Below are positions 6,048 to 56,977 of a stretch of 64,000 nucleotides of DNA, piece after piece. The DNA comes from Chloroflexota bacterium (GTDB lineage: Bacteria > Chloroflexota > Dehalococcoidia > Lucifugimonadales > Lucifugimonadaceae). A program made the translations under genes and the position numbers. Below the pieces are notes generated by a model. That model was not told the origin of the DNA, did no database searches, and saw only the letters and a list, made by a program, of their open reading frames with translations. Every line of letters starts with the position of its first letter. The first letter of the stretch is position 1. The DNA lies in contig JACZRO010000002.1 in assembly GCA_022574675.1 (NCBI GenBank), positions 8,529-72,528 of the forward strand, written 5' to 3'.

Positions 6048-7151
6048 TTACGTCAACGGGTACAGCTCGGTCTCCGGATAGAAATCGGACCAGGCGAACC
6101 AGAACGACACAATGGAGTGGACCCGCTCAAGCTGCACGCCTTCCAGTTCCCCGTCGATCCCGCGTCCGGTGAACGGCAGGAAGCGCGAGCCCGTCGCCTT
6201 ATCGCGAAGCAGGACCGTGCCATCGTCATCGACCACCTGCTCAAACTCCAGGCGCCGTCCATTCACCACCCGGTTGTATACCAGGGCGGTATCGCTGTTC
6301 GGCTGAAAAAATATGACCACGTCCTTGCCCGCCACGGTGTCGTTCACGACCGGCATAGCTTCGAGCGCGGACAGGGGAAACGCCTTCGGCCCACCATCGA
6401 AGCCGATCCCGACGACCTTGTCCTTGCGTGCCAGGCGGTCGTCGACGATGGACTCGCCAATTACGCCGGCGTCGTTATTGACGTAGTACCCGTCATACGG
6501 ATCGGAGGAACCGCGGCGGCCCTTGTCCAGGACAGCCGTGTCGGGGTGCTCACGCACCCACTGGCCGTACGTCGTCTGTACGATCGGAATGGTCTCCAGG
6601 TACCGGCCGGCGAACTCACCCTTGACCCCGCGTGACAGGAACTGGCTCCAGAGAGTGCCGCTCTGGTGGTCGTACATCACCAGCGCGTTCATGATCAGCT
6701 TTCCGGACACACCAAATGTGTGCTCGACTCCGTCTATCGTCCGGGCATACCCGATGCCGGTGAAGCAAAGCGGTCACCAGGTGACGGCTATGGGAACCCC
6801 GCCGACGGTATCGTTCACGATCTCCCGTCCGCTCAGGAATGGTATCGAGTAAACGCGACTGTCCCCGTTTATCGTTACGCCCAGCACCGGCTCGTCGTCG
6901 TCGTACGTCTCGGCCTGTTCCGGTGAAATGAACCGCGGATTGAGAATCGCCTGGATGCCGTCCCGCGGCAGCAACGTGACGATCTCCAGCGTACGGTCGA
7001 GGGACGCAGGGTCATTTGGATCGCCCGGCAACACGATGGTCTCCTTGCTCAGTAGCGCAATCCGCAACGCTCCCGGTCCGCCCAGGACGAAGAACATGAC
7101 GAGGCCCGCGGCGGCCAGTCCCATGAACAGATATGACCTGGGAATCTTCAA
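6048..7151 (-). CDS. DUF3179-family exported protein with an in-frame TGA (6774..6776) at the first Cys of the conserved CPLC motif; candidate selenoprotein or nonsense pseudogene
   Basis: Track ORFs 6774..7151 and 6048..6710 share one frame. Read-through gives ...IVNDTVGGVPIAVTW[TGA]PLCFTGIGYARTIDGVEHTFGVSGKLIMNALVMYDHQSGTLWSQ..., and there is an N-terminal TM/signal anchor. Confidence 0.7.
6741..6760 (-). other. SECIS-like hairpin 13 nt downstream of TGA 6774..6776
   Basis: mRNA CCGGCAU-CGGGU-AUG(C)CCGG. 7 bp with one bulged C and a G-rich 5-nt loop. Confidence 0.4.
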
Positions 7152-49623: not shown

Positions 49624-50532
49624 TTGGAACAGTCAATGGAAATCACCGCGATAAGTCAGCCCCCGGTATGGAGAGGTTATCTCTGGCCGGCGCTGCTCAC
49701 GCTCTCCGTACTCGGGTTTGCTGCGATCGCCGGATTCATCTGGCGAGACGGCGGTGTTGTCACCGCGAACATACTCAGCCTCCAGGGTCAATCCGAGGGC
49801 CAGGTCAGCGCCCTTAGCAGCATCATCCCCCTGGGATTCGCGTTCACGGTCGGCATGGTCGCCACGCTCAACCCCTGCGGCTTCGTGATGTTGCCCGCCT
49901 ACCTTGGTCTGTACATCGGCACCGACGACGGCGACAATTCCGTCAAACTCGGTCGCCGGATGGTCAGCGCCGGAAGCGTGAGCATGTCCGTCGGTCTCGG
50001 TTTCATCGTGTTGTTCGGCGCAGTTGGGCTGATCATCACCTCCGTGACGACCTCGATCGTGCAGTACTTTGACTGGGTCGGGCTGGGCGTCGGGATCATC
50101 ATGGGTGGCACGGCGATGTACGTCCTGGCGGGCGGAAAGCTGTACAACAGGTTCGCAGCCAACACCTCGGCCAAGATCGGTGACCCGCGCGACAGCACGC
50201 TTGTCGGATACTTCCTGTTCGGGATCAGTTACGCCGTAGCATCGCTCGGCTGCACGCTTCCGCTGTTCCTGGCGGTCGTGGCCAGCTCAGCTACGGGGAG
50301 TTTCCTGTTCGGGGCCTCGCAATTCGTCTCTTACGCCCTGGGCATGACGTTTATCTTCGCGGTGCTGACCCTGAGCGTCGCCCTGTTCAAGGGCGTGATG
50401 GTCAAATGGATGCGCAAGGCGATGCCATACGTCCAGCCTGCGTCGGCGGTGCTCCTGCTCCTCGCAGGCGCTTACCTGATCTTCTACTGGCTGACGGTCG
50501 GGGGCCTCGCGGACGTTATCGCCCAGGCATGA
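49624..50532 (+). CDS. Cytochrome c biogenesis CcdA/DsbD-type transmembrane thiol-disulfide transporter
   Basis: Polytopic. VATLNPCGFVMLPAYLG and a second Cys-containing helix (VASLGCTLPLF). Confidence 0.75.
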   Translation: MEQSMEITAISQPPVWRGYLWPALLTLSVLGFAAIAGFIWRDGGVVTANILSLQGQSEGQVSALSSIIPLGFAFTVGMVATLNPCGFVMLPAYLGLYIGTDDGDNSVKLGRRMVSAGSVSMSVGLGFIVLFGAVGLIITSVTTSIVQYFDWVGLGVGIIMGGTAMYVLAGGKLYNRFAANTSAKIGDPRDSTLVGYFLFGISYAVASLGCTLPLFLAVVASSATGSFLFGASQFVSYALGMTFIFAVLTLSVALFKGVMVKWMRKAMPYVQPASAVLLLLAGAYLIFYWLTVGGLADVIAQA

Positions 50533-50661
50533 AGGATCCGGTCATCCCGGCCGGATTAACGGAAACGGATGAGAAGGCCGCCCCGATCTGATCGAGGCGG
50601 CCTTCTCGCGTGGGCGTCCGCGGGCCTTAAAGAGAGAGTTCGCGGGCCGGGAGCCGGGCTG

Positions 50662-51408
50662 CTACGCCACCACGTTCCTGAGTTCGCCGAGGCCATCGAT
50701 CGCTGTCACCAGCGTGTCTCCGGGTTGCAGGCGCGATGTCACGCCGGAAGTACCCGTGAAGACGATGTCCCCCGGCTCCAGGGTGTTCGTCTGCGAGATG
50801 AAAGAGAGGCACTCCTGCGTGTTGAATATCATCTCTTCCGTGTTGCAGTTCTGGACCTCCTCGCCGTTTACGGTGACGACGATGGACTTGCCGTTCGGGT
50901 CGTAGTCGGTCTCTATGTACGGGCCGATGGGCGAGAATGAGTCACTTCCCTTGGCGCGCCACCATGACGTGTCGCCAGACTGCCACTCCCGCGCGCTGAT
51001 GTCGTGGCCGATGGTGTATCCAAGGACGTAGCTCAATGCGTCGCCGGCCGACACCCTGCGCATGCGACGGCCGATCACGACGACCATCTCGCCCTCTTCG
51101 TCCACCTTGCCGGCCTTCGCCGGGAGGACGACCGTGGAGTCGGGTCCCACGATAGAGCTGGACGGCTTGAGAAACGGTTCGGGCTGCGTGGGCGCCGGGG
51201 CGCCGCCCGTGTGAGAGTGGAAGTTGACCGCCATCGCGTACACATCGCCGGGCGCGATCGGCGCAAGCAACTGGACCGAGGAAAGCGACGCGCTGGCGCC
51301 GGTCTCGGTGTACCGGCCGGTCGGCGGGCCGGAGATCTCGATCACGGTGTCCCCGTCGAGAATTCCGTGTGTGGCGTGGCCTCCGGCCGAGTACCTGACA
51401 AATTTCAT
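50662..51408 (-). CDS. Fumarylacetoacetate hydrolase (FAH) family protein
   Basis: MKFVRY..., EGEMVVVIG, GYTIGHDISAR, GDIVFTGT. ATG 51408 is preceded by AGGAGAG. Confidence 0.85.
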   Translation of the reverse strand: MKFVRYSAGGHATHGILDGDTVIEISGPPTGRYTETGASASLSSVQLLAPIAPGDVYAMAVNFHSHTGGAPAPTQPEPFLKPSSSIVGPDSTVVLPAKAGKVDEEGEMVVVIGRRMRRVSAGDALSYVLGYTIGHDISAREWQSGDTSWWRAKGSDSFSPIGPYIETDYDPNGKSIVVTVNGEEVQNCNTEEMIFNTQECLSFISQTNTLEPGDIVFTGTSGVTSRLQPGDTLVTAIDGLGELRNVVA

Positions 51409-51645: not shown

Positions 51646-53256
51646 ATGTTCGACCTGTTGATCAAGAACGGCACCGTCCTGGACGGCACGGGCGCGCCCG
51701 GCTATGCCGCCGACATCGGGATCTCGGGCGACAGCATCACGGTCGTCGGCGACCTGGACGGTGAGGCGGCCCGGAATTCAACCAGGACGATCGATGCGTC
51801 CGGGCGCGTGGTGACTCCCGGGTTCATCGATCTTCACTGTCACAGCGACATGTCGTTCCTGATCGACCCGCTCGCCGATTCAAAGTTGACGCAGGGCGTG
51901 ACGCTGGAACTCAATGGCAACTGCGGCATGAGCCCCTGCGCTCCGCTACAGTCCAAAGCGGCCCGGGAAGCGCTTGAAAGCCGTTTCTTCACGGCCGGCG
52001 CGGAGTTCAGCCCGGACTGGACCGACTTCGCCGGATACCTGGACGCCCAGGAACGTGCGGAGGGCGTGATCAACCAGGCGTTCCAGGTCGGCCACGGCAC
52101 TGTGCGCACCAACGTCCTCGGCATGGACGCCCGGGCGCCGACGATCGACGAGATGGAGCAGATGAAGCGGCTGGTGGCGGAGAGCATCGACGCCGGGGCG
52201 ATGGGCTTCGCGACCGGGCTGTTCTACGCGCCCGGGAGCTACTCGCTCACCGACGAGGTGGTGCAGCTGGCGCAGGAGGCCGCTGACCGCGGGGTGCTGT
52301 ACTCGAGCCATATCCGGTCGGAGTCGAACGATAGCGTCGGGCTGCACGTCGCGGTGAACGAGGCGATCGAGATCGGCCGCCGCACGGGCGGTCGCATCCA
52401 GATGTCACACGTCAAGGTAAAAGGCCCGTTCACCTGGGGCCGGGCCGACGAGGTCCTGGACCTGCAGGCGCGTGCCCGGCGTGAGGGTATCGACGTCGCC
52501 GGCGACCAGTACCCGTATGTTGCGTCGAGCACCTCGCTAACCGGAGGGTTGTTCCCGCGCTGGGCGCTGGTGGGCGGGCGGACCGCCACGCTGGAGATGA
52601 TGGACGACTCAGATCTCCGGGCGCGCTTGCGAGACGGCATCGACTGGAACATCAAGAGCTTCATGGGCTCTCCCGACCGTGTTCTTCTAGCCGCGTACGG
52701 GCCGGACCGAAGTCGCGAGGGTCAACGGTTGAACGAGATCGCGGACGACATGGGGTGTGAGCCAGCGGAGGCGGCGATCAGGCTTTACGAAGGGGCCGAG
52801 GCGTCTATCGTCCAGTTTTCGTTGCACGAAGACGATGTAGATCTGATCGCCCGCGACCCGTTCATCGCCGTCGCCTCCGATGGCAACTCGGTGCGCTCGG
52901 AAGGCCCGTTGTCGAGCGGCAAGCCCCACCCTCGTTCATACGGGACGTTCCCGCGTTACCTGGCAGAGATGCACCGGGATAAAGGCCTGGTTTCGCTAGA
53001 GGAGGCCGTGCGCAAGATGTGCGCATTGCCGGCGTCTCGGCTGCGTCTGACTCGACGGGGCCGGATCGCGCCCGGCTGTTTCGCGGACGTGGTGGTGTTC
53101 AACCCGGACACCGTACAGGACCGCGCCACTTTCACAGACCCGCACCAGTACACGACGGGGATCGACGCCGTCGTGGTCAACGGGCAGATCGCGCTGGAGG
53201 ACGGGTCGCCGACCGGGGTCCGGGCCGGGCGGGTGGTGCGGTCCGCAGACGGCTAG
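51646..53256 (+). CDS. N-acyl-D-amino-acid deacylase (D-aminoacylase) family amidohydrolase
   Basis: MFDLLIKNGTVLDGTG..., PGFIDLHCHSD, ...ADVVVFNPDTV... Confidence 0.85.
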   Translation: MFDLLIKNGTVLDGTGAPGYAADIGISGDSITVVGDLDGEAARNSTRTIDASGRVVTPGFIDLHCHSDMSFLIDPLADSKLTQGVTLELNGNCGMSPCAPLQSKAAREALESRFFTAGAEFSPDWTDFAGYLDAQERAEGVINQAFQVGHGTVRTNVLGMDARAPTIDEMEQMKRLVAESIDAGAMGFATGLFYAPGSYSLTDEVVQLAQEAADRGVLYSSHIRSESNDSVGLHVAVNEAIEIGRRTGGRIQMSHVKVKGPFTWGRADEVLDLQARARREGIDVAGDQYPYVASSTSLTGGLFPRWALVGGRTATLEMMDDSDLRARLRDGIDWNIKSFMGSPDRVLLAAYGPDRSREGQRLNEIADDMGCEPAEAAIRLYEGAEASIVQFSLHEDDVDLIARDPFIAVASDGNSVRSEGPLSSGKPHPRSYGTFPRYLAEMHRDKGLVSLEEAVRKMCALPASRLRLTRRGRIAPGCFADVVVFNPDTVQDRATFTDPHQYTTGIDAVVVNGQIALEDGSPTGVRAGRVVRSADG

Positions 53257-53332
53257 CGTCCCGGGTGATTCAGGAACGGCCGGGCACGCACGCGGCGTGC
53301 ATGGGCGCCCGAAACGTGACTCGCAAGGCGAA

Positions 53333-53548
53333 TCAGCCAGCGCCGGACAACGCCTCACTCTGTTTTGGCGGGCAGCGGCGGTCCGCGTAGGAGCAAAAGA
53401 CGCAGCATTCGCCTTCCTTCGGCCGGAGCAGCTCGCCGCACGACGTGCAGTCGTAGAACACCTGTCAGGTGTCGGCCGGCATTGTCTCCCGTTTCGCGGC
53501 GCCACAGGCCGGACAGGTCAGTACGGCTTCCAGAAATATCTTCGGCAT
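53333..53548 (-). CDS. GDCCVxC-type small Cys-rich protein with in-frame TGA at codon 28 (53465..53467); candidate selenoprotein
   Basis: Hand translation: MPKIFLEAVLTCPACGAAKRETMPADT[TGA]QVFYDCTSCGELLRPKEGECCVFCSYADRRCPPKQSEALSGAG*. Not in the ORF track because of the TGA. Confidence 0.7.
53440..53454 (-). other. SECIS-like hairpin 10 nt downstream of TGA 53465..53467
   Basis: mRNA ACGAC-UGCAC-GUCGU. Confidence 0.35.
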
Positions 53549-53635
53549 CGTCTCGTTCCCTCTTGCCGGTCTCCGTTGCCGGGCCGGGGAGTTGTTGTTC
53601 ATAGCTGGTGGTTAGAGGGCGGCCGTTCGCGCGCC

Positions 53636-54349
53636 TCAGCAGTCACACGCGATCTCGTCATCTGGGTCGCCGACCCTCTCCTCCGCGTCAACTCGCCACA
53701 TGGTGCCGATGAGCCGGCCGCCGGACGTCGCGACCAGGATGCGATCGACGTTACGCGCCTGCATCCGTTCCAGAATCGGCGCCGCCTCGGCGTCTGGGCG
53801 GGATGTGGTCGGGCCGAGCTCCATGATGTCCTCGACGACAGCTGCGGGGTCGCCCGCCAGCGCCGGAGCACGCAGCCGGCCGAGGATGATCCGTTGTTCG
53901 TTGACGACAATGCACTGGTCCTGGTTCGCGGCGCGCGCGCGCTCGGCCGCATCTCCGACGGTATCCTCCAGCGCGCAGGTCACGTCGTCCGTCCGAGCCA
54001 CGTCAGCAGCCCGGAGGACGGGCATTGCGTCGCCCTCGCGCGGCAATCCTGCGGCGAACCAGTCCGCCTTTCCCGCCTCGTAGTCATATACGTTTGTAAA
54101 GCCAAGGGATTCAAGCCGCGCCGCGGCTCGTAGACTCATGTCTCAAGTCGCGTCGTGTCAGTACAGGACGACCGGGCGGGCGCGATCGAGGACGGCCGCG
54201 GTGTCCCGGTTGAGCTTCTTGAGGGGGAGGTTGATGGCGCCGGGCAGACGGCCCTCGGCGTACTCGCGGGCCGGGAGCACGTCGACGAGCTGGGTATCCT
54301 CATCGTCGAGCATTCTCTGAAGTTCATCTCGTGAAACCGTCGTTGGCAT
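53636..54349 (-). CDS. Rhodanese-domain + CBS-pair protein with two in-frame TGA codons (54158..54160 and 54143..54145) in the active-site loop; candidate di-selenocysteine protein
   Basis: Track ORFs 54158..54349 and 53636..54139 are in one frame. Read-through gives ...DRARPVVLY[TGA]HDAT[TGA][34 protein letters not shown]..., followed by a CBS pair. Confidence 0.7.
54114..54128 (-). other. SECIS-like hairpin 14 nt downstream of the second TGA (29 nt from the first)
   Basis: mRNA AGCCG-CGGCG-CGGCU. Confidence 0.35.
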
Positions 54350-54382
54350 TCGATTTTCCTTCCAATCAGGCCCATCGCCGCG

Positions 54383-54925
54383 TCAGATCGCTTCTTCTAT
54401 GTACTGCGCCAATCGGTCGTACCCCACCGGGGGGCCGCTGTAGACCACTCGATGGTCACGGTCCAGCACTACCGTGTGTCCGAGAACCCGTACCCGGAAA
54501 TCCGAGACGAGTTTCCCGTCCGGCGCCACAGCCCAGGACACGTCGGCCGCCCCTTTAGACCGCCAGTACTGGACCCAGCTTTGTAGTGGATCCCCGTAGA
54601 TGTCGATCGCTACCGTTCGCAGCCCCTCGCTTCGATACTTCTCTTGAAGCGCCCCGAGGACTGGAGCCTCCAGTCCGCATGTCGGTCAGCCAACGAACGA
54701 AAAATAGATGACGAGCGGCCGGTCGGCATGGTCCACGAGGCGGAACTCGGACATCTCCAGGGTCCCTTCACCCACCGCGTCGGCGACCTGAATCGAAAAC
54801 TCCGGAGAGGGCGGCCGGCCGGAGACCAGTTCTTCTGAGGTTCTCTCCGAGCTTTGGCAGGCGATGGTCGCGATCATTCCGATTACGACCACCGCGCCTA
54901 TAAATGGCAAGCGGATCAATCTCAC
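54383..54925 (-). CDS. TlpA/ResA-like thioredoxin-fold protein (signal/lipoprotein-like N-terminus) with in-frame TGA (54686..54688) at the first Cys of CxxC; candidate selenoprotein
   Basis: Read-through gives ...DRPLVIYFSFVG[TGA]PTCGLEAPVLGALQEKYRSEGLRTVAIDIYGDPLQSWVQYWRSKGAADVSWAVAPDGKLVSDFRVRVLGHTVVLDRDHRVVYSG...*. N-terminus MRLIRLPFIGAVVVIGMIATIAC. Confidence 0.7.
54658..54676 (-). other. SECIS-like hairpin 9 nt downstream of TGA 54686..54688
   Basis: mRNA GGACUGGA-GGC-UCCAGUCC (8-bp perfect stem; or 7 bp with loop AGGCU). Confidence 0.45.
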
Positions 54926-55095
54926 CGGCTCTGCTCTTCCCCCGCCGTCAACTCCGGCGCGGGCTTCTCCGCGTCGCGTAAATCAAGCTCGGTCTCGTCA
55001 CCCTCGTGAGCCCTCGATCTCAGTCCTCTGACGGCGACCACCGCCGCAATGGCGATCGGTATGCAACATACCGCTGCGGCTAGAAAAAAAGGCAC
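54922..55095 (-). CDS. Small single-pass membrane protein with a vicinal Cys pair in the TM helix
   Basis: GTG 55095 preceded by GGGGGA. (M)PFFLAAAVCCIPIAIAAVVAVRGLRSRAHEGDETELDLRDAEKPAPELTAGEEQSR*. Its stop overlaps the GTG start of the next gene (GTGA). Not in the ORF track. Confidence 0.45.
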   Translation of the reverse strand: MPFFLAAAVCCIPIAIAAVVAVRGLRSRAHEGDETELDLRDAEKPAPELTAGEEQSR

Positions 55096-55139
55096 CTGTC
55101 ATCCCCCTAAAGTTCCCGTGTCCTCAGTCCAACTGGCGT

Positions 55140-55811
55140 TCAGGCGTACTTCAACAAGGAAGCCCAGGCTTGCTTTCCGAGATCGAACGCATCCGGCAAC
55201 GATAGGAAGACGACTTTCATGTCCCTGCCCTCGGACCACTCTTTTGCCTCAGCCTGATTCGCAAAGAAATGGACTTGCTGGCAGAACGTCATGTAGATGG
55301 ACTCGATAGAACTTCCGTCATCGCCTGCCGGGTCCAGCATGATCATGGATACGACGGCATCCGGGTGACTGCTCGACGACACGCCCTCCGGCGTGACGGT
55401 CAACGTGATCGACTCTCCCGATGACGGAGAATTGGATACGACCAGGGCTTCTTTGCCGAGGGCCGGCGGCAGGAACAACGAATCCCACGCGCACCAGGTA
55501 CTCAGTCGAACGCCGGATACGGTGAACTGGTGCGGGTGCTCGTTGAGCGACAGGCCCGCTACACCGAGGATGTTGTCGTCATCATCTCGTTCAGATATCT
55601 CCCGTACGAACGCCTCGGCGGCATCTCGATCCACGCCCAGGGCGTCGGAGATCTCGGAAACGTCGGCCGGCCGGATCGGATCGCCTTCGGCCAACCGTCG
55701 CCATATTGCGATCAGAACCCGGGCGTCGTCGGATCCAAACAAAGGCGGTATGCCGGCGGAGTTCAGATTTTCGGCGATTTCTCCGATGGTCAGCTGCGTG
55801 TTGGTCGTCAT
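55140..55811 (-). CDS. merB: Organomercurial (alkylmercury) lyase MerB
   Basis: LSTWCAWDSLFLPPALGKEALVVSNSPSSGESITLTVTP and TFCQQVHFFANQAEAKEW align with the MerB catalytic regions (YAWCALDTLIFPALIG... / SFCCHVHFFAS...). The Cys-Asp-Cys triad is conserved. Confidence 0.85.
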   Translation of the reverse strand: MTTNTQLTIGEIAENLNSAGIPPLFGSDDARVLIAIWRRLAEGDPIRPADVSEISDALGVDRDAAEAFVREISERDDDDNILGVAGLSLNEHPHQFTVSGVRLSTWCAWDSLFLPPALGKEALVVSNSPSSGESITLTVTPEGVSSSSHPDAVVSMIMLDPAGDDGSSIESIYMTFCQQVHFFANQAEAKEWSEGRDMKVVFLSLPDAFDLGKQAWASLLKYA

Positions 55812-55858
55812 TTCACGATTCTCTGTTGTTTACTCGCCTGTTAGCGCGTTTCTTTGTC

Positions 55859-56215
55859 TTACCGGAGCGTCTGGCAGGCGATGACCTGCTCGGCGTTATC
55901 TGCCAGCACTTGCTCTGCGCCTCGGAGGAGGTCCGCTACGCGGTCATCTCCGATGGAATAGATCACTCTCTTGCCGTCGCGCACGGACGCCACGAGCCCG
56001 CACCACTTGAGACAGGCGAGGTGCGTCGAAATCCTGCTCTGGGACCCTCCTGTGCCTTCCACGAGTTCGCCCACGCTTTGCGGGCCTTCGTCCAGAAGAA
56101 GTTTCAATATTCGGACCCGGGTAGGATCGCCGAGCGCCCGGAAGAACTTGGCCAGCAGGTCGGCTTGAGCCGCCAACAATTCCTGCGTGCGCTCTCGAGT
56201 TAGCGTTGTGGTCAT
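55859..56215 (-). CDS. ArsR/SmtB-family metalloregulator
   Basis: FFRALGDPTRVRILKLLLDEGPQSVGELVEGTGGSQSRISTHLACLKWCGLV. The Cys pair in the recognition helix region is a possible metal site. Confidence 0.85.
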   Translation of the reverse strand: MTTTLTRERTQELLAAQADLLAKFFRALGDPTRVRILKLLLDEGPQSVGELVEGTGGSQSRISTHLACLKWCGLVASVRDGKRVIYSIGDDRVADLLRGAEQVLADNAEQVIACQTLR

Positions 56216-56233
56216 AGTTCACTTCCATGTATT

Positions 56234-56284
56234 CGCAATTGCGGATATGAGGTACATGATGACCCAGAATTGCGATTGACGCAA
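56234..56284. promoter_or_regulatory. Candidate operator palindromes upstream of the ArsR-family gene
   Basis: CGCAATTGCG (56234..56243, perfect palindrome) and TTGCG-attga-CGCAA (56270..56284). Both contain AATTGCG. Confidence 0.3.
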
Positions 56285-56330
56285 GCGCGATCGAATTGGA
56301 GGCAGACGCTTGTCTGACGGACCAATGGCG

Positions 56331-56393
56331 TTCGAGGACGGAGCGCCGACCGGCGTCAGGGGTGGCCGGGTGGTGCGGTCCGAGGACGGCTAG
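56331..56393 (+). pseudogene. Relic copy of the D-aminoacylase 3' end (direct repeat of 53194..53256)
   Basis: 52/63 nt identical by hand alignment. Encodes FEDGAPTGVRGGRVVRSEDG* versus LEDGSPTGVRAGRVVRSADG* at the real gene end. Confidence 0.55.
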
Positions 56394-56977
56394 TCCGCGA
56401 GCTTCGACCAGGTCTCGGCCCAGGCCAGGACGGCGCTGCTGGTGGGCCGGCCGAAGCGATTCTCTTCGTACGGCTCGCCGGCCGCAAAGTCGCCGTCGAC
56501 GGTGATCCTCGCCTCACGCGCCTGCACGAAGGTCGTCCACGCGCTCAACGGTATCTGGCCTTCACCCCTGCCGCCCGGCATGTGCATCACAAAGGCGGGC
56601 TGAAGGTCGGTCCATGTCAGCGAGAACTCCTCGGCGTCTGAGGTGACGAACTCGGTCGAGTACGAGCGGGCGTCGCCCTCGCGAAGAAACTCGGCATCGC
56701 GGACCGGCAGGGATGTATCGGCGTGGCGCGGGTACAGAAACCCCTGGATATTGACCTGCAGGAAGCGTGCGAGGGCGATGTTGTCGCTGTAGACGCGCGC
56801 CTCGCCCCCGGTCATCTCGCCTTCGTAGAACAGAACGTGGCCGGGTCCGGCGGGGGTCCACAGCACACGCCAGTGGCTCGCGCGCTCCGTGATCGTCTCG
56901 CCGCCGTCGCGGCTGAGCCTGATGAACGAGTTCTCGCCGACGAGGATAACTTCGCCGTTATCGATGATGGGAGGCAT
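56390..56977 (-). CDS. Hypothetical protein (195 aa)
   Basis: Protein-like ORF. No family recognised. Confidence 0.5.
   Translation of the reverse strand: MPPIIDNGEVILVGENSFIRLSRDGGETITERASHWRVLWTPAGPGHVLFYEGEMTGGEARVYSDNIALARFLQVNIQGFLYPRHADTSLPVRDAEFLREGDARSYSTEFVTSDAEEFSLTWTDLQPAFVMHMPGGRGEGQIPLSAWTTFVQAREARITVDGDFAAGEPYEENRFGRPTSSAVLAWAETWSKLAD

Follow-up and report, generated by a model that had tools for sequence, protein, structure and literature searches.

A rhodanese-CBS gene with two in-frame TGA codons and a proposed family of selenoproteins with one or two selenocysteines in the active-site loop

This study concerns a stretch of 64,000 nucleotides (nt) from a Chloroflexota bacterium of the Dehalococcoidia (NCBI assembly GCA_022574675.1, contig JACZRO010000002.1, positions 8,529 to 72,528), here called the window, in which positions are counted from the first letter. 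A minus-strand gene in the window (Table 1) encodes a rhodanese domain followed by a CBS pair (Bateman module). Its frame runs from an ATG at 54349, preceded by the Shine-Dalgarno sequence GGAAGGA, to a terminal TGA at 53638-53636. The 237 codons before that stop are interrupted only by two TGA codons, TGA1 and TGA2, which are proposed to encode selenocysteine (Sec, U) at both Cys positions of the rhodanese active-site loop. The junction reads RPVVLY-TGA-HDAT-TGA. A preliminary description, made from the letters of this DNA, had placed two listed open reading frames (ORFs; 54158..54349, 63 amino acids, and 53636..54139, 167 amino acids) in one frame with a double-TGA junction between them, and both the shared frame and the junction were confirmed exactly as described.

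Gene architecture and distribution of the TGA codons

With Cys put at both stops, the protein matches the Pfam Rhodanese model PF00581 at 68.1 bits (gathering threshold 22.2; 1e-18) over residues 7-99, a span that crosses both TGAs, and it matches Pfam CBS PF00571 at 29.4 bits (threshold 24; 1e-6) as a CBS pair. The AlphaFold2 model of the Cys homolog P0008 has a predicted local distance difference test score of 92; its best matches in the PDB are the rhodanese BH2092 and CBS pairs, the solved CBS pairs being matched at E ~1e-8. In the homolog alignment Cys125, at the start of the CBS half, is invariant and may take part in function.

The two loop positions were told apart by changing Cys to Ala and rescoring the protein. 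The change at position 1 (TGA1) lowered the score against the MoeB, GlpE, PspE, ChrE and LYCAU NCBIfam models and was penalised by all rhodanese models tested, whereas position 2 (TGA2) mattered for few of them, notably TsoB. By these probes position 1 is the canonical catalytic Cys, as the preliminary description had supposed, and it stands at the start of the active-site loop in a domain that passes the rhodanese threshold.

A search of 5.8 billion proteins returned 534 relatives. About half of the best 120 of these are ORFs of 167-179 amino acids that start exactly at the Met after the second stop, and the full-length relatives carry VYC-x4-C-D[LM]S at the aligned positions. The DNA of the shortened relatives holds the same frame and the same two TGAs, down to ~55% identity (Y-TGA-HDAT-TGA, Y-TGA-HDST-TGA and Y-TGA-HDAA-TGA). 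Orthologs share the domain architecture of the window protein, and one of them, in the metagenome-assembled genome GCA_027623795.1, is 81% identical. A further 160 loci came from JGI metagenomes and from genomes scanned at one per species, and the loop codons were counted in 172 sources (171 fetched loci and the window). Before removal of duplicates there were 136 loci with TGC/TGT-x4-TGA, 28 with TGA-x4-TGA (the window included) and one with Cys at both positions. After removal, 153 distinct loci comprised 129 of the C-x4-TGA class and 24 of the TGA-x4-TGA class, hereafter C-x4-U and U-x4-U. Position 2 is TGA in 164 of the 172 sources and Cys in the Cys/Cys homologs.

Both TGAs thus align with Cys in homologs, as the preliminary description had expected: Cys occupies both columns in the true Cys/Cys genes L045, L172 and L173, in the full-length Cys/Cys proteins P0008-P0036 and in BH2092 (YCWGPAC). 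The search for one- and two-TGA orthologs that it had proposed found both classes, with the frame kept on either side of the TGAs. Every complete gene has exactly two, one or no internal stops according to its class, with no others. The double TGA is shared by its 24 distinct loci down to ~50% amino acid identity, which bears out the earlier argument that two random nonsense mutations would be an improbable cause.

The C-terminal ORF was also searched against 1.84 billion cluster representatives, exhaustively, and 714 clusters matched at E<=1e-10. Of the 150 best, only about a dozen reach upstream of TGA2, and ~90% begin directly after it. Since upstream extension is so rare among the representatives, the Sec form appears to be dominant and routinely mis-called as a short 'CBS' protein. 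The family occurs in Actinomycetota, Chloroflexota and Acidobacteriota from soil and aquatic sources. No NCBIfam model reaches its cutoff on this protein, and the one family member named by NCBI is a 'hypothetical protein'.

With position 1 canonical and position 2 almost universally TGA, the ancestral Sec of the family would replace the second, non-canonical Cys. Neighbour-joining places the double-TGA sequences in a single clade that adjoins Dehalococcoidia C-x4-U genes, and the named members of the clade are Chloroflexota/Dehalococcoidia metagenome-assembled genomes. We infer that C-x4-U is the ancestral and dominant state, and that the Sec at the catalytic position was added once, in the Chloroflexota/Dehalococcoidia lineage. 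An HD[AS][TA] subgroup of the clade, to which the window copy belongs, has a Cys-rich C-terminal tail (EIACDC, SCCCCKD or SCNCKG).

Three relatives depart from these patterns. An Actinomycetota copy (L084, ~6170-6320) has three TGAs, in YC-TGA-DCQ-TGA-DLSARAA-TGA-RLE, of which one falls at loop position 2 and another stands in place of the TGG of a Trp; the copy seems to be decaying or to carry G-to-A errors. One contig carries two paralogous C-YDLD-U rhodanese-CBS genes 2 kb apart (L155:1173 and L155:3201). In the JGI protein P0023, loop position 2 is Trp and the C-terminus is long and aberrant, which suggests that the gene caller applied genetic code 4 to its contig.

Table 1. Features of the rhodanese-CBS locus and of other TGA-containing genes in the window
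Feature	Position	Strand	Details
Rhodanese + CBS-pair protein gene	53636..54349	minus	237 codons; two in-frame TGA; C-terminal ...EIACDC tail
TGA1, codon 64	54158..54160	minus	Canonical catalytic Cys position of rhodanese loop; proposed Sec
TGA2, codon 69	54143..54145	minus	Second Cys of C-x4-C loop; proposed Sec
Internal ATG (Met71)	54137..54139	minus	Gene callers' start of 167-amino-acid 'CBS' ORF; judged not the real start
Hairpin H1	54133..54149	minus	GACU / UGAGACAUG / AGUC; TGA2 in loop; specific to double-TGA clade
Hairpin H2 (SECIS-like)	54112..54130	minus	CGAGCCGC-GGC-GCGGCUUG; 8 bp, 3-nt loop
Redoxin/TlpA-like membrane-anchored protein gene, upstream operon neighbour	54383..54925	minus	In-frame TGA 54688-54686, FSFVG-U-PTC (UxxC)
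GDCCVxC domain (seleno)protein gene, downstream operon neighbour	53333..53602	minus	In-frame TGA 53467-53465
MerB-like organomercurial lyase gene, upstream in cluster	55140..55811	minus	NCBIfam NF009710, 1.9e-44, 151.6 bits, under 193 cutoff
ArsR/SmtB metalloregulator gene, head of cluster	55859..56215	minus	NCBIfam NF033788, 89.5 bits, cutoff 55
DUF3179 protein gene	~6048..7124	minus	TGA 6776-6774 in TW-U-PLC; PF11376 1e-84, full-length match

Hairpins around and after the TGA codons

The hairpin H2 begins 12 nt after TGA2; the distance to its loop is 20 nt from TGA2 and 35 nt from TGA1. It was predicted by RNAalifold, and alone it has a folding energy of -11.9 kcal/mol. The RNA alignment comprised 137 distinct Sec-form loop sequences (19 double-TGA and 118 single-TGA), over which the H2 pairing holds in 96.5% of cells, with the six central pairs essentially invariant. 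The four-fold sites inside it are frozen, with Ala GCC in 135/137, Ala GCG in 133/137 and Arg CGG in all 137 sequences, and the Arg before it uses only codons ending in A or G, while the codons of neighbouring Pro and Gly residues are free to vary. The SPRAAWRLE peptide is also encoded in Cys/Cys homologs, but there with CGC and other codons and with H2 broken. The loop, which starts with G, is GGC in the window and GUG in most relatives.

In the published model of the bacterial selenocysteine insertion sequence (SECIS), the loop lies 16-37 nt from the UGA (PMC13188914). For TGA2, H2 has all four of the bacterial SECIS features quoted from that source, and for TGA1 its loop, at 35 nt, also falls inside the range. 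From this conservation and geometry, H2 is with high confidence predicted to be a SECIS. ARAGORN called a 'tRNA-Val(tac)' over the SECIS-like hairpin, inside the coding region just after TGA2, in two relatives (L009:3057-3142 and L010:2397-2482); these calls overlap the coding hairpin region and are almost certainly false positives. An Rfam scan of 53200-55200 returned nothing at E<=10, and a promoter and terminator scan of 53000-56600 returned nothing.

The preliminary description had recorded only one good hairpin after the TGA pair, at 54114..54128. That hairpin is present as part of the longer H2, but it is not the only one, as a second, small hairpin (H1) exists with TGA2 in its loop. In the window the arms of H1 are GACU (54149-54146) and AGUC (54136-54133), and in relatives they are GGCU(U)/(G)AGCC, GGACUC/GAGUCC or GGGCUC/GAGCCC. 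H1 has a G at loop position 2, and in other members of the clade its stem is of 6-7 bp. H1 was found in 18 of the 19 distinct double-TGA sequences vs 4 of the 118 single-TGA ones. In each of two registers the third base of the Ser codon (AGU/AGC) is invariably the partner of the A or G upstream, with A-U to G-C compensation, and by our reading of the tree this compensation would amount to at least three events. Owing to the two registers a single consensus structure fails, and RNAalifold reports H2 alone. The H1 region has a median stability of -5.8 kcal/mol in U-x4-U sequences vs -2.2 kcal/mol in C-x4-U sequences (Mann-Whitney p=1.6e-8, not corrected for phylogeny). With moderate confidence, H1 is probably a helper for UGA1, acting as a spacer or as a mini-SECIS.

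Selenocysteine use in the window and the gene neighbourhood

Three further genes of the window have an in-frame TGA at a Cys position and belong to selenoprotein-type families. The redoxin-like gene directly upstream has an 8-bp hairpin 17 nt after its TGA, with the same GGC loop as H2; the UxxC motif is known in redoxin/TlpA selenoproteins (PMC13188914), and this gene likely encodes another selenoprotein. The downstream gene scores 96.7 bits (cutoff 40) against the GDCCVxC model NCBIfam NF041374, has its TGA at the Cys of ...MPADT-U-QVFYDC, and is followed after the TGA by a hairpin with a GUC loop. The hairpins of both genes resemble H2 and lie at 17-21 nt. The third gene, of the DUF3179 family listed among selenoproteins (PMC13188914), emerged when the window was scanned blindly for TGA codons close to Cys; in this GC-rich DNA most of the output was noise. 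Its candidate hairpin is weaker. With 47 kb between this gene and the mer-like cluster, Sec use would be genome-wide here. Because of these three genes, the organism very probably decodes Sec.

All genes of the window cluster are on the minus strand, in the order ArsR, MerB-like lyase, redoxin(U), rhodanese-CBS(UU) and GDCCVxC(U). No MerA, MerT or MerP was seen in the annotated flanks. The closest ortholog loci contain ArsR, MerR, HMA, DsbD-TM and thioredoxin genes. When neighbours were clustered, the commonest upstream gene on the same strand was a DF-family (seleno)protein fused to a MerB-like domain, present at 36/129 C-x4-U loci and at 21 of the 73 that have at least 1.5 kb of upstream sequence (~29%). 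ArsR was the next commonest (25/129 C-x4-U loci), followed by DsbD-TM, MerR and heavy-metal ATPases, and no MerA was seen. Our searches of the literature on rhodanese with MerB, and on GDCCVxC, found nothing relevant.

Some neighbouring genes were noted in their own right. The DF/MerB-like fusion at L059:4898-5998 and at 43 other loci scores 97.6 bits against NF049942, its lyase domain falling under the MerB and SaoL cutoffs, and it may be an unnamed type of organometallic lyase. A small CPCH-motif membrane protein (…VACPCHLPLTLPLILG…) is encoded at four double-TGA loci (L005:4420-4734 and three others); it was seen only near double-TGA genes and has no NCBIfam match. On the plus strand of the window (49624..50940), a DsbD_TM-like gene is followed by an ORF of 123 amino acids without a Pfam match; a thioredoxin stands at that place in the ortholog locus L001.

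Interpretation and comparison with known systems

We consider that the gene encodes one selenoprotein of 237 residues, a rhodanese with a CBS pair in which both Cys of the active-site loop (Y-C-x4-C-D-M-S) are replaced by Sec, with a probability of roughly 0.85 as judged from comparative sequence evidence. The SelB/tRNA-Sec system would read both UGA codons, with H2 serving as the SelB-binding SECIS at loop distances that suit each of them. While UGA1 is in the A site, H1 would fold away 17-20 nt containing UGA2 and so keep H2 near the ribosome entrance; H1 would then be unwound, bringing H2 to the entrance again for UGA2. Alternatively, H1 could be a minimal SECIS of its own.

As to function, the neighbours suggest that the protein may work with the MerB-like lyases, regulated by ArsR, in the handling of Hg(II) or an organometal product. 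The rhodanese cradle could offer the metal an S-Se or Se-Se site, assisted by the Cys tail (CxC/CCCC) of the subgroup, with the CBS pair in a regulatory role. The site could act as a high-affinity acceptor or through selenylsulfide/diselenide redox chemistry; diselenide or Se-Hg-Se chemistry of the U-x4-U loop is speculation. As a tentative synthesis, which we hold to be well short of probable, a single SECIS (H2) and a clade-specific 'collapsible spacer' (H1) that arose with the second Sec would decode two UGAs 15 nt apart. The family would then be an unrecognised, widespread selenoprotein partner of MerB-like lyases, accepting Hg(II) or an organometal at an S-Se or Se-Se site where a lineage has no MerA close by.

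Several observations weigh against one or another part of this picture. Neither the 64-kb window nor the 60 related loci examined yielded a tRNA-Sec with ARAGORN, and no selA, selB or selD was seen in them; IF2 was the only match when the six reading frames of the window were searched for SelA, SelD and SelB motifs. The machinery is inferred from the genes that would need it. H2 is conserved rather than covarying, with one compensatory change in 137 sequences, and TGA1 is followed by no hairpin of the organism's usual geometry (loop 17-21 nt past the UGA). The U-x4-U sequences are monophyletic, so that the association of H1 with them amounts to few independent events. Only ~12 nt separate TGA1 from the loop of H1, a distance short of the 16-37 nt range or at its margin, and in the window H1 has only 4 bp and is weak (-0.5 to -2.3 kcal/mol). 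At codon 73 (54131-54133) the window copy alone reads Leu (CTA). The S-P-R motif that follows the loop is otherwise nearly invariant, its Pro (CCA) being kept in 131/137 relatives, and the Leu may reflect a sequencing error, a neutral substitution or the onset of decay. The substitution also creates an alternative fold of -18.5 kcal/mol that beats H1 and H2 together (-14.9 kcal/mol); much of this competing fold would be taken apart by the ribosome. The evidence for a role with metals is of one kind, the gene neighbourhood, and a MerB-like gene flanks only ~29% of the relatives with enough upstream sequence and, among the U-x4-U loci, the window copy alone.

The rival that survives best, although we regard it as unlikely, takes only TGA2 as a Sec codon and TGA1 as a genuine stop, leaving an inactive gene or a fragment of 63 amino acids, possibly with re-initiation at ATG 54139. 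It draws on the missing SECIS at a canonical distance after TGA1, on the presence of the internal ATG in the window, and on L015, a close relative of the C-x4-U gene L014 that lacks H1, so that a recent nonsense mutation could account for TGA1 in at least one case. Yet TGA1 is kept in 24 distinct loci across ~50% amino acid divergence, with the N-terminal 63 codons preserved in frame and free of any other lesion, and a split there would cut the rhodanese fold inside its active-site loop. Nor is the internal start conserved: codon 71 is Met in 80/137 relatives, Leu in 38 and other residues (Val and Ile included) in the remainder, it is GTA, not a start codon, in the U-x4-U sequence L094, and no Shine-Dalgarno sequence precedes it in the window. 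Separate translation of the two halves, which the preliminary description had named as a possible refutation, is thus not what the relatives indicate. H2 is moreover within the model range for TGA1, H1 is kept by compensation, and other rhodanese selenoproteins, the UxxG forms and TsoB, are tabulated with Sec at the catalytic position (PMC13188914).

Still less probable is the reading of UGA without a Sec system, by a reassigned code (table 4 or 25) or by near-cognate Cys or Trp suppression. The Trp at position 2 of P0023 would fit it, although it evidently comes from a code-4 translation. The complete genes end in TGA in 88 of 148 cases (TAG in 39, TAA in 21), that of the window among them, and TGA as the commonest terminal stop indicates that it is not reassigned and still a stop in these organisms. 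The in-frame TGAs fall on Cys columns only, the SECIS-type hairpin is tied to TGA and lost in the Cys forms, and the neighbouring genes are of families curated as selenoproteins. Reassignment to code 4 or 25 was rejected on the terminal use of TGA, the Cys columns and the coupling of hairpin to TGA. A pseudogene, or an assembly or sequencing artefact with two chance nonsense changes, might be suggested by the Pro-to-Leu change beside the loop and by the lack of visible Sec machinery in the window, but is effectively refuted by the comparative data, in which the same two TGAs recur in many independent assemblies from different samples (this also excludes the sequencing error that the preliminary description had allowed for), all complete double-TGA copies have two internal stops exactly and no frameshifts, and the RNA after the TGAs is conserved.

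A single double-Sec selenoprotein accordingly remains our preferred reading of the window gene, and its relatives expose what would be a large selenoprotein family, systematically cut in two by gene callers. No NCBIfam model is dedicated to the rhodanese-CBS family, and the 2026 table of prokaryotic selenoproteins does not list it (PMC13188914). Its C-x4-U and U-x4-U forms are a natural before-and-after pair for the decoding of two UGAs five codons apart, and H1, a concrete RNA feature that appears together with the second Sec, is a testable lead. The link with ArsR and MerB-like/DF (seleno)proteins and the other Sec neighbours suggest selenium-based handling of mercury or organometals, which would bear on Hg cycling in Chloroflexota of groundwater, soil and deep water.

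Five forms of rhodanese selenoprotein have been listed, namely UxxS, UxxG, CxU (NF041203, 'LYCAU'), UxxG again and TsoB (NF045694; PMC13188914). TsoB is tabulated there, after Haft & Tolstoy 2025, as 'rhodanese-like form 5', a rhodanese/DsbD fusion-like protein with UxxxxU and two Sec. The window protein shares with it, as far as that tabulation goes, the rhodanese domain with two Sec five residues apart. Both TGA columns are Cys/Sec-conserved in the TsoB model, against which Cys-to-Ala changes reduce the score from 39.4 to 34.1 to 28.8 bits (5.3 bits per Cys). The two differ in that the window protein reaches only 37.9-39.4 bits against a cutoff of 805, over model positions 46-163 of 572, has a CBS pair and a Cys tail instead of the DsbD-like membrane domain, and lies in an ArsR/MerB-like neighbourhood, not in a tso cluster.

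A UxU rhodanese was reported in Olavius symbionts in 2007 (PMC1976440). Like it, and like forms 1-4, the window protein has Sec in or beside the catalytic loop, and the UxU protein is an earlier example of a rhodanese gaining a second Sec next to the first. The preliminary description had called bacterial proteins with two Sec rare. Double-Sec rhodanese loops do have precedents, in TsoB and the UxU rhodanese, while the proposal that the rhodanese-CBS gene itself is double-Sec found support. Against the CxU model NF041203 the window protein scores 43-46 bits, below the cutoff of 115, and only position 1 matters there. None of the forms listed in PMC13188914 has C-x4-U or a CBS fusion, and the rhodanese-CBS family differs from the other rhodanese selenoproteins in having its ancestral Sec at the second, non-canonical Cys.

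Among all-Cys proteins, BH2092 of Bacillus halodurans (PDB 3NHV/3O3W), a structural-genomics entry, is the best structural and sequence match of the rhodanese half, and its YCWGPAC...AA..LGF aligns residue for residue with Y-U-HDAT-U...AA..LGF. BH2092 and other single-domain rhodaneses with C-x4-C differ in being all-Cys and in lacking the CBS pair. Mercuric reductase, MerA, has an active-site C-x4-C and a C-terminal Cys pair. The likeness is one of analogy, an x4-spaced chalcogen pair with a flexible Cys-rich tail (EIACDC or SCCCCKD) in a MerB-containing cluster; with no FAD/NADPH oxidoreductase domain and no homology to MerA in the window protein, it is a lead for function only. The protein is thus of a known kind, a rhodanese selenoprotein with a TsoB-like U-x4-U loop, and what is new is its architecture and the family to which it belongs.

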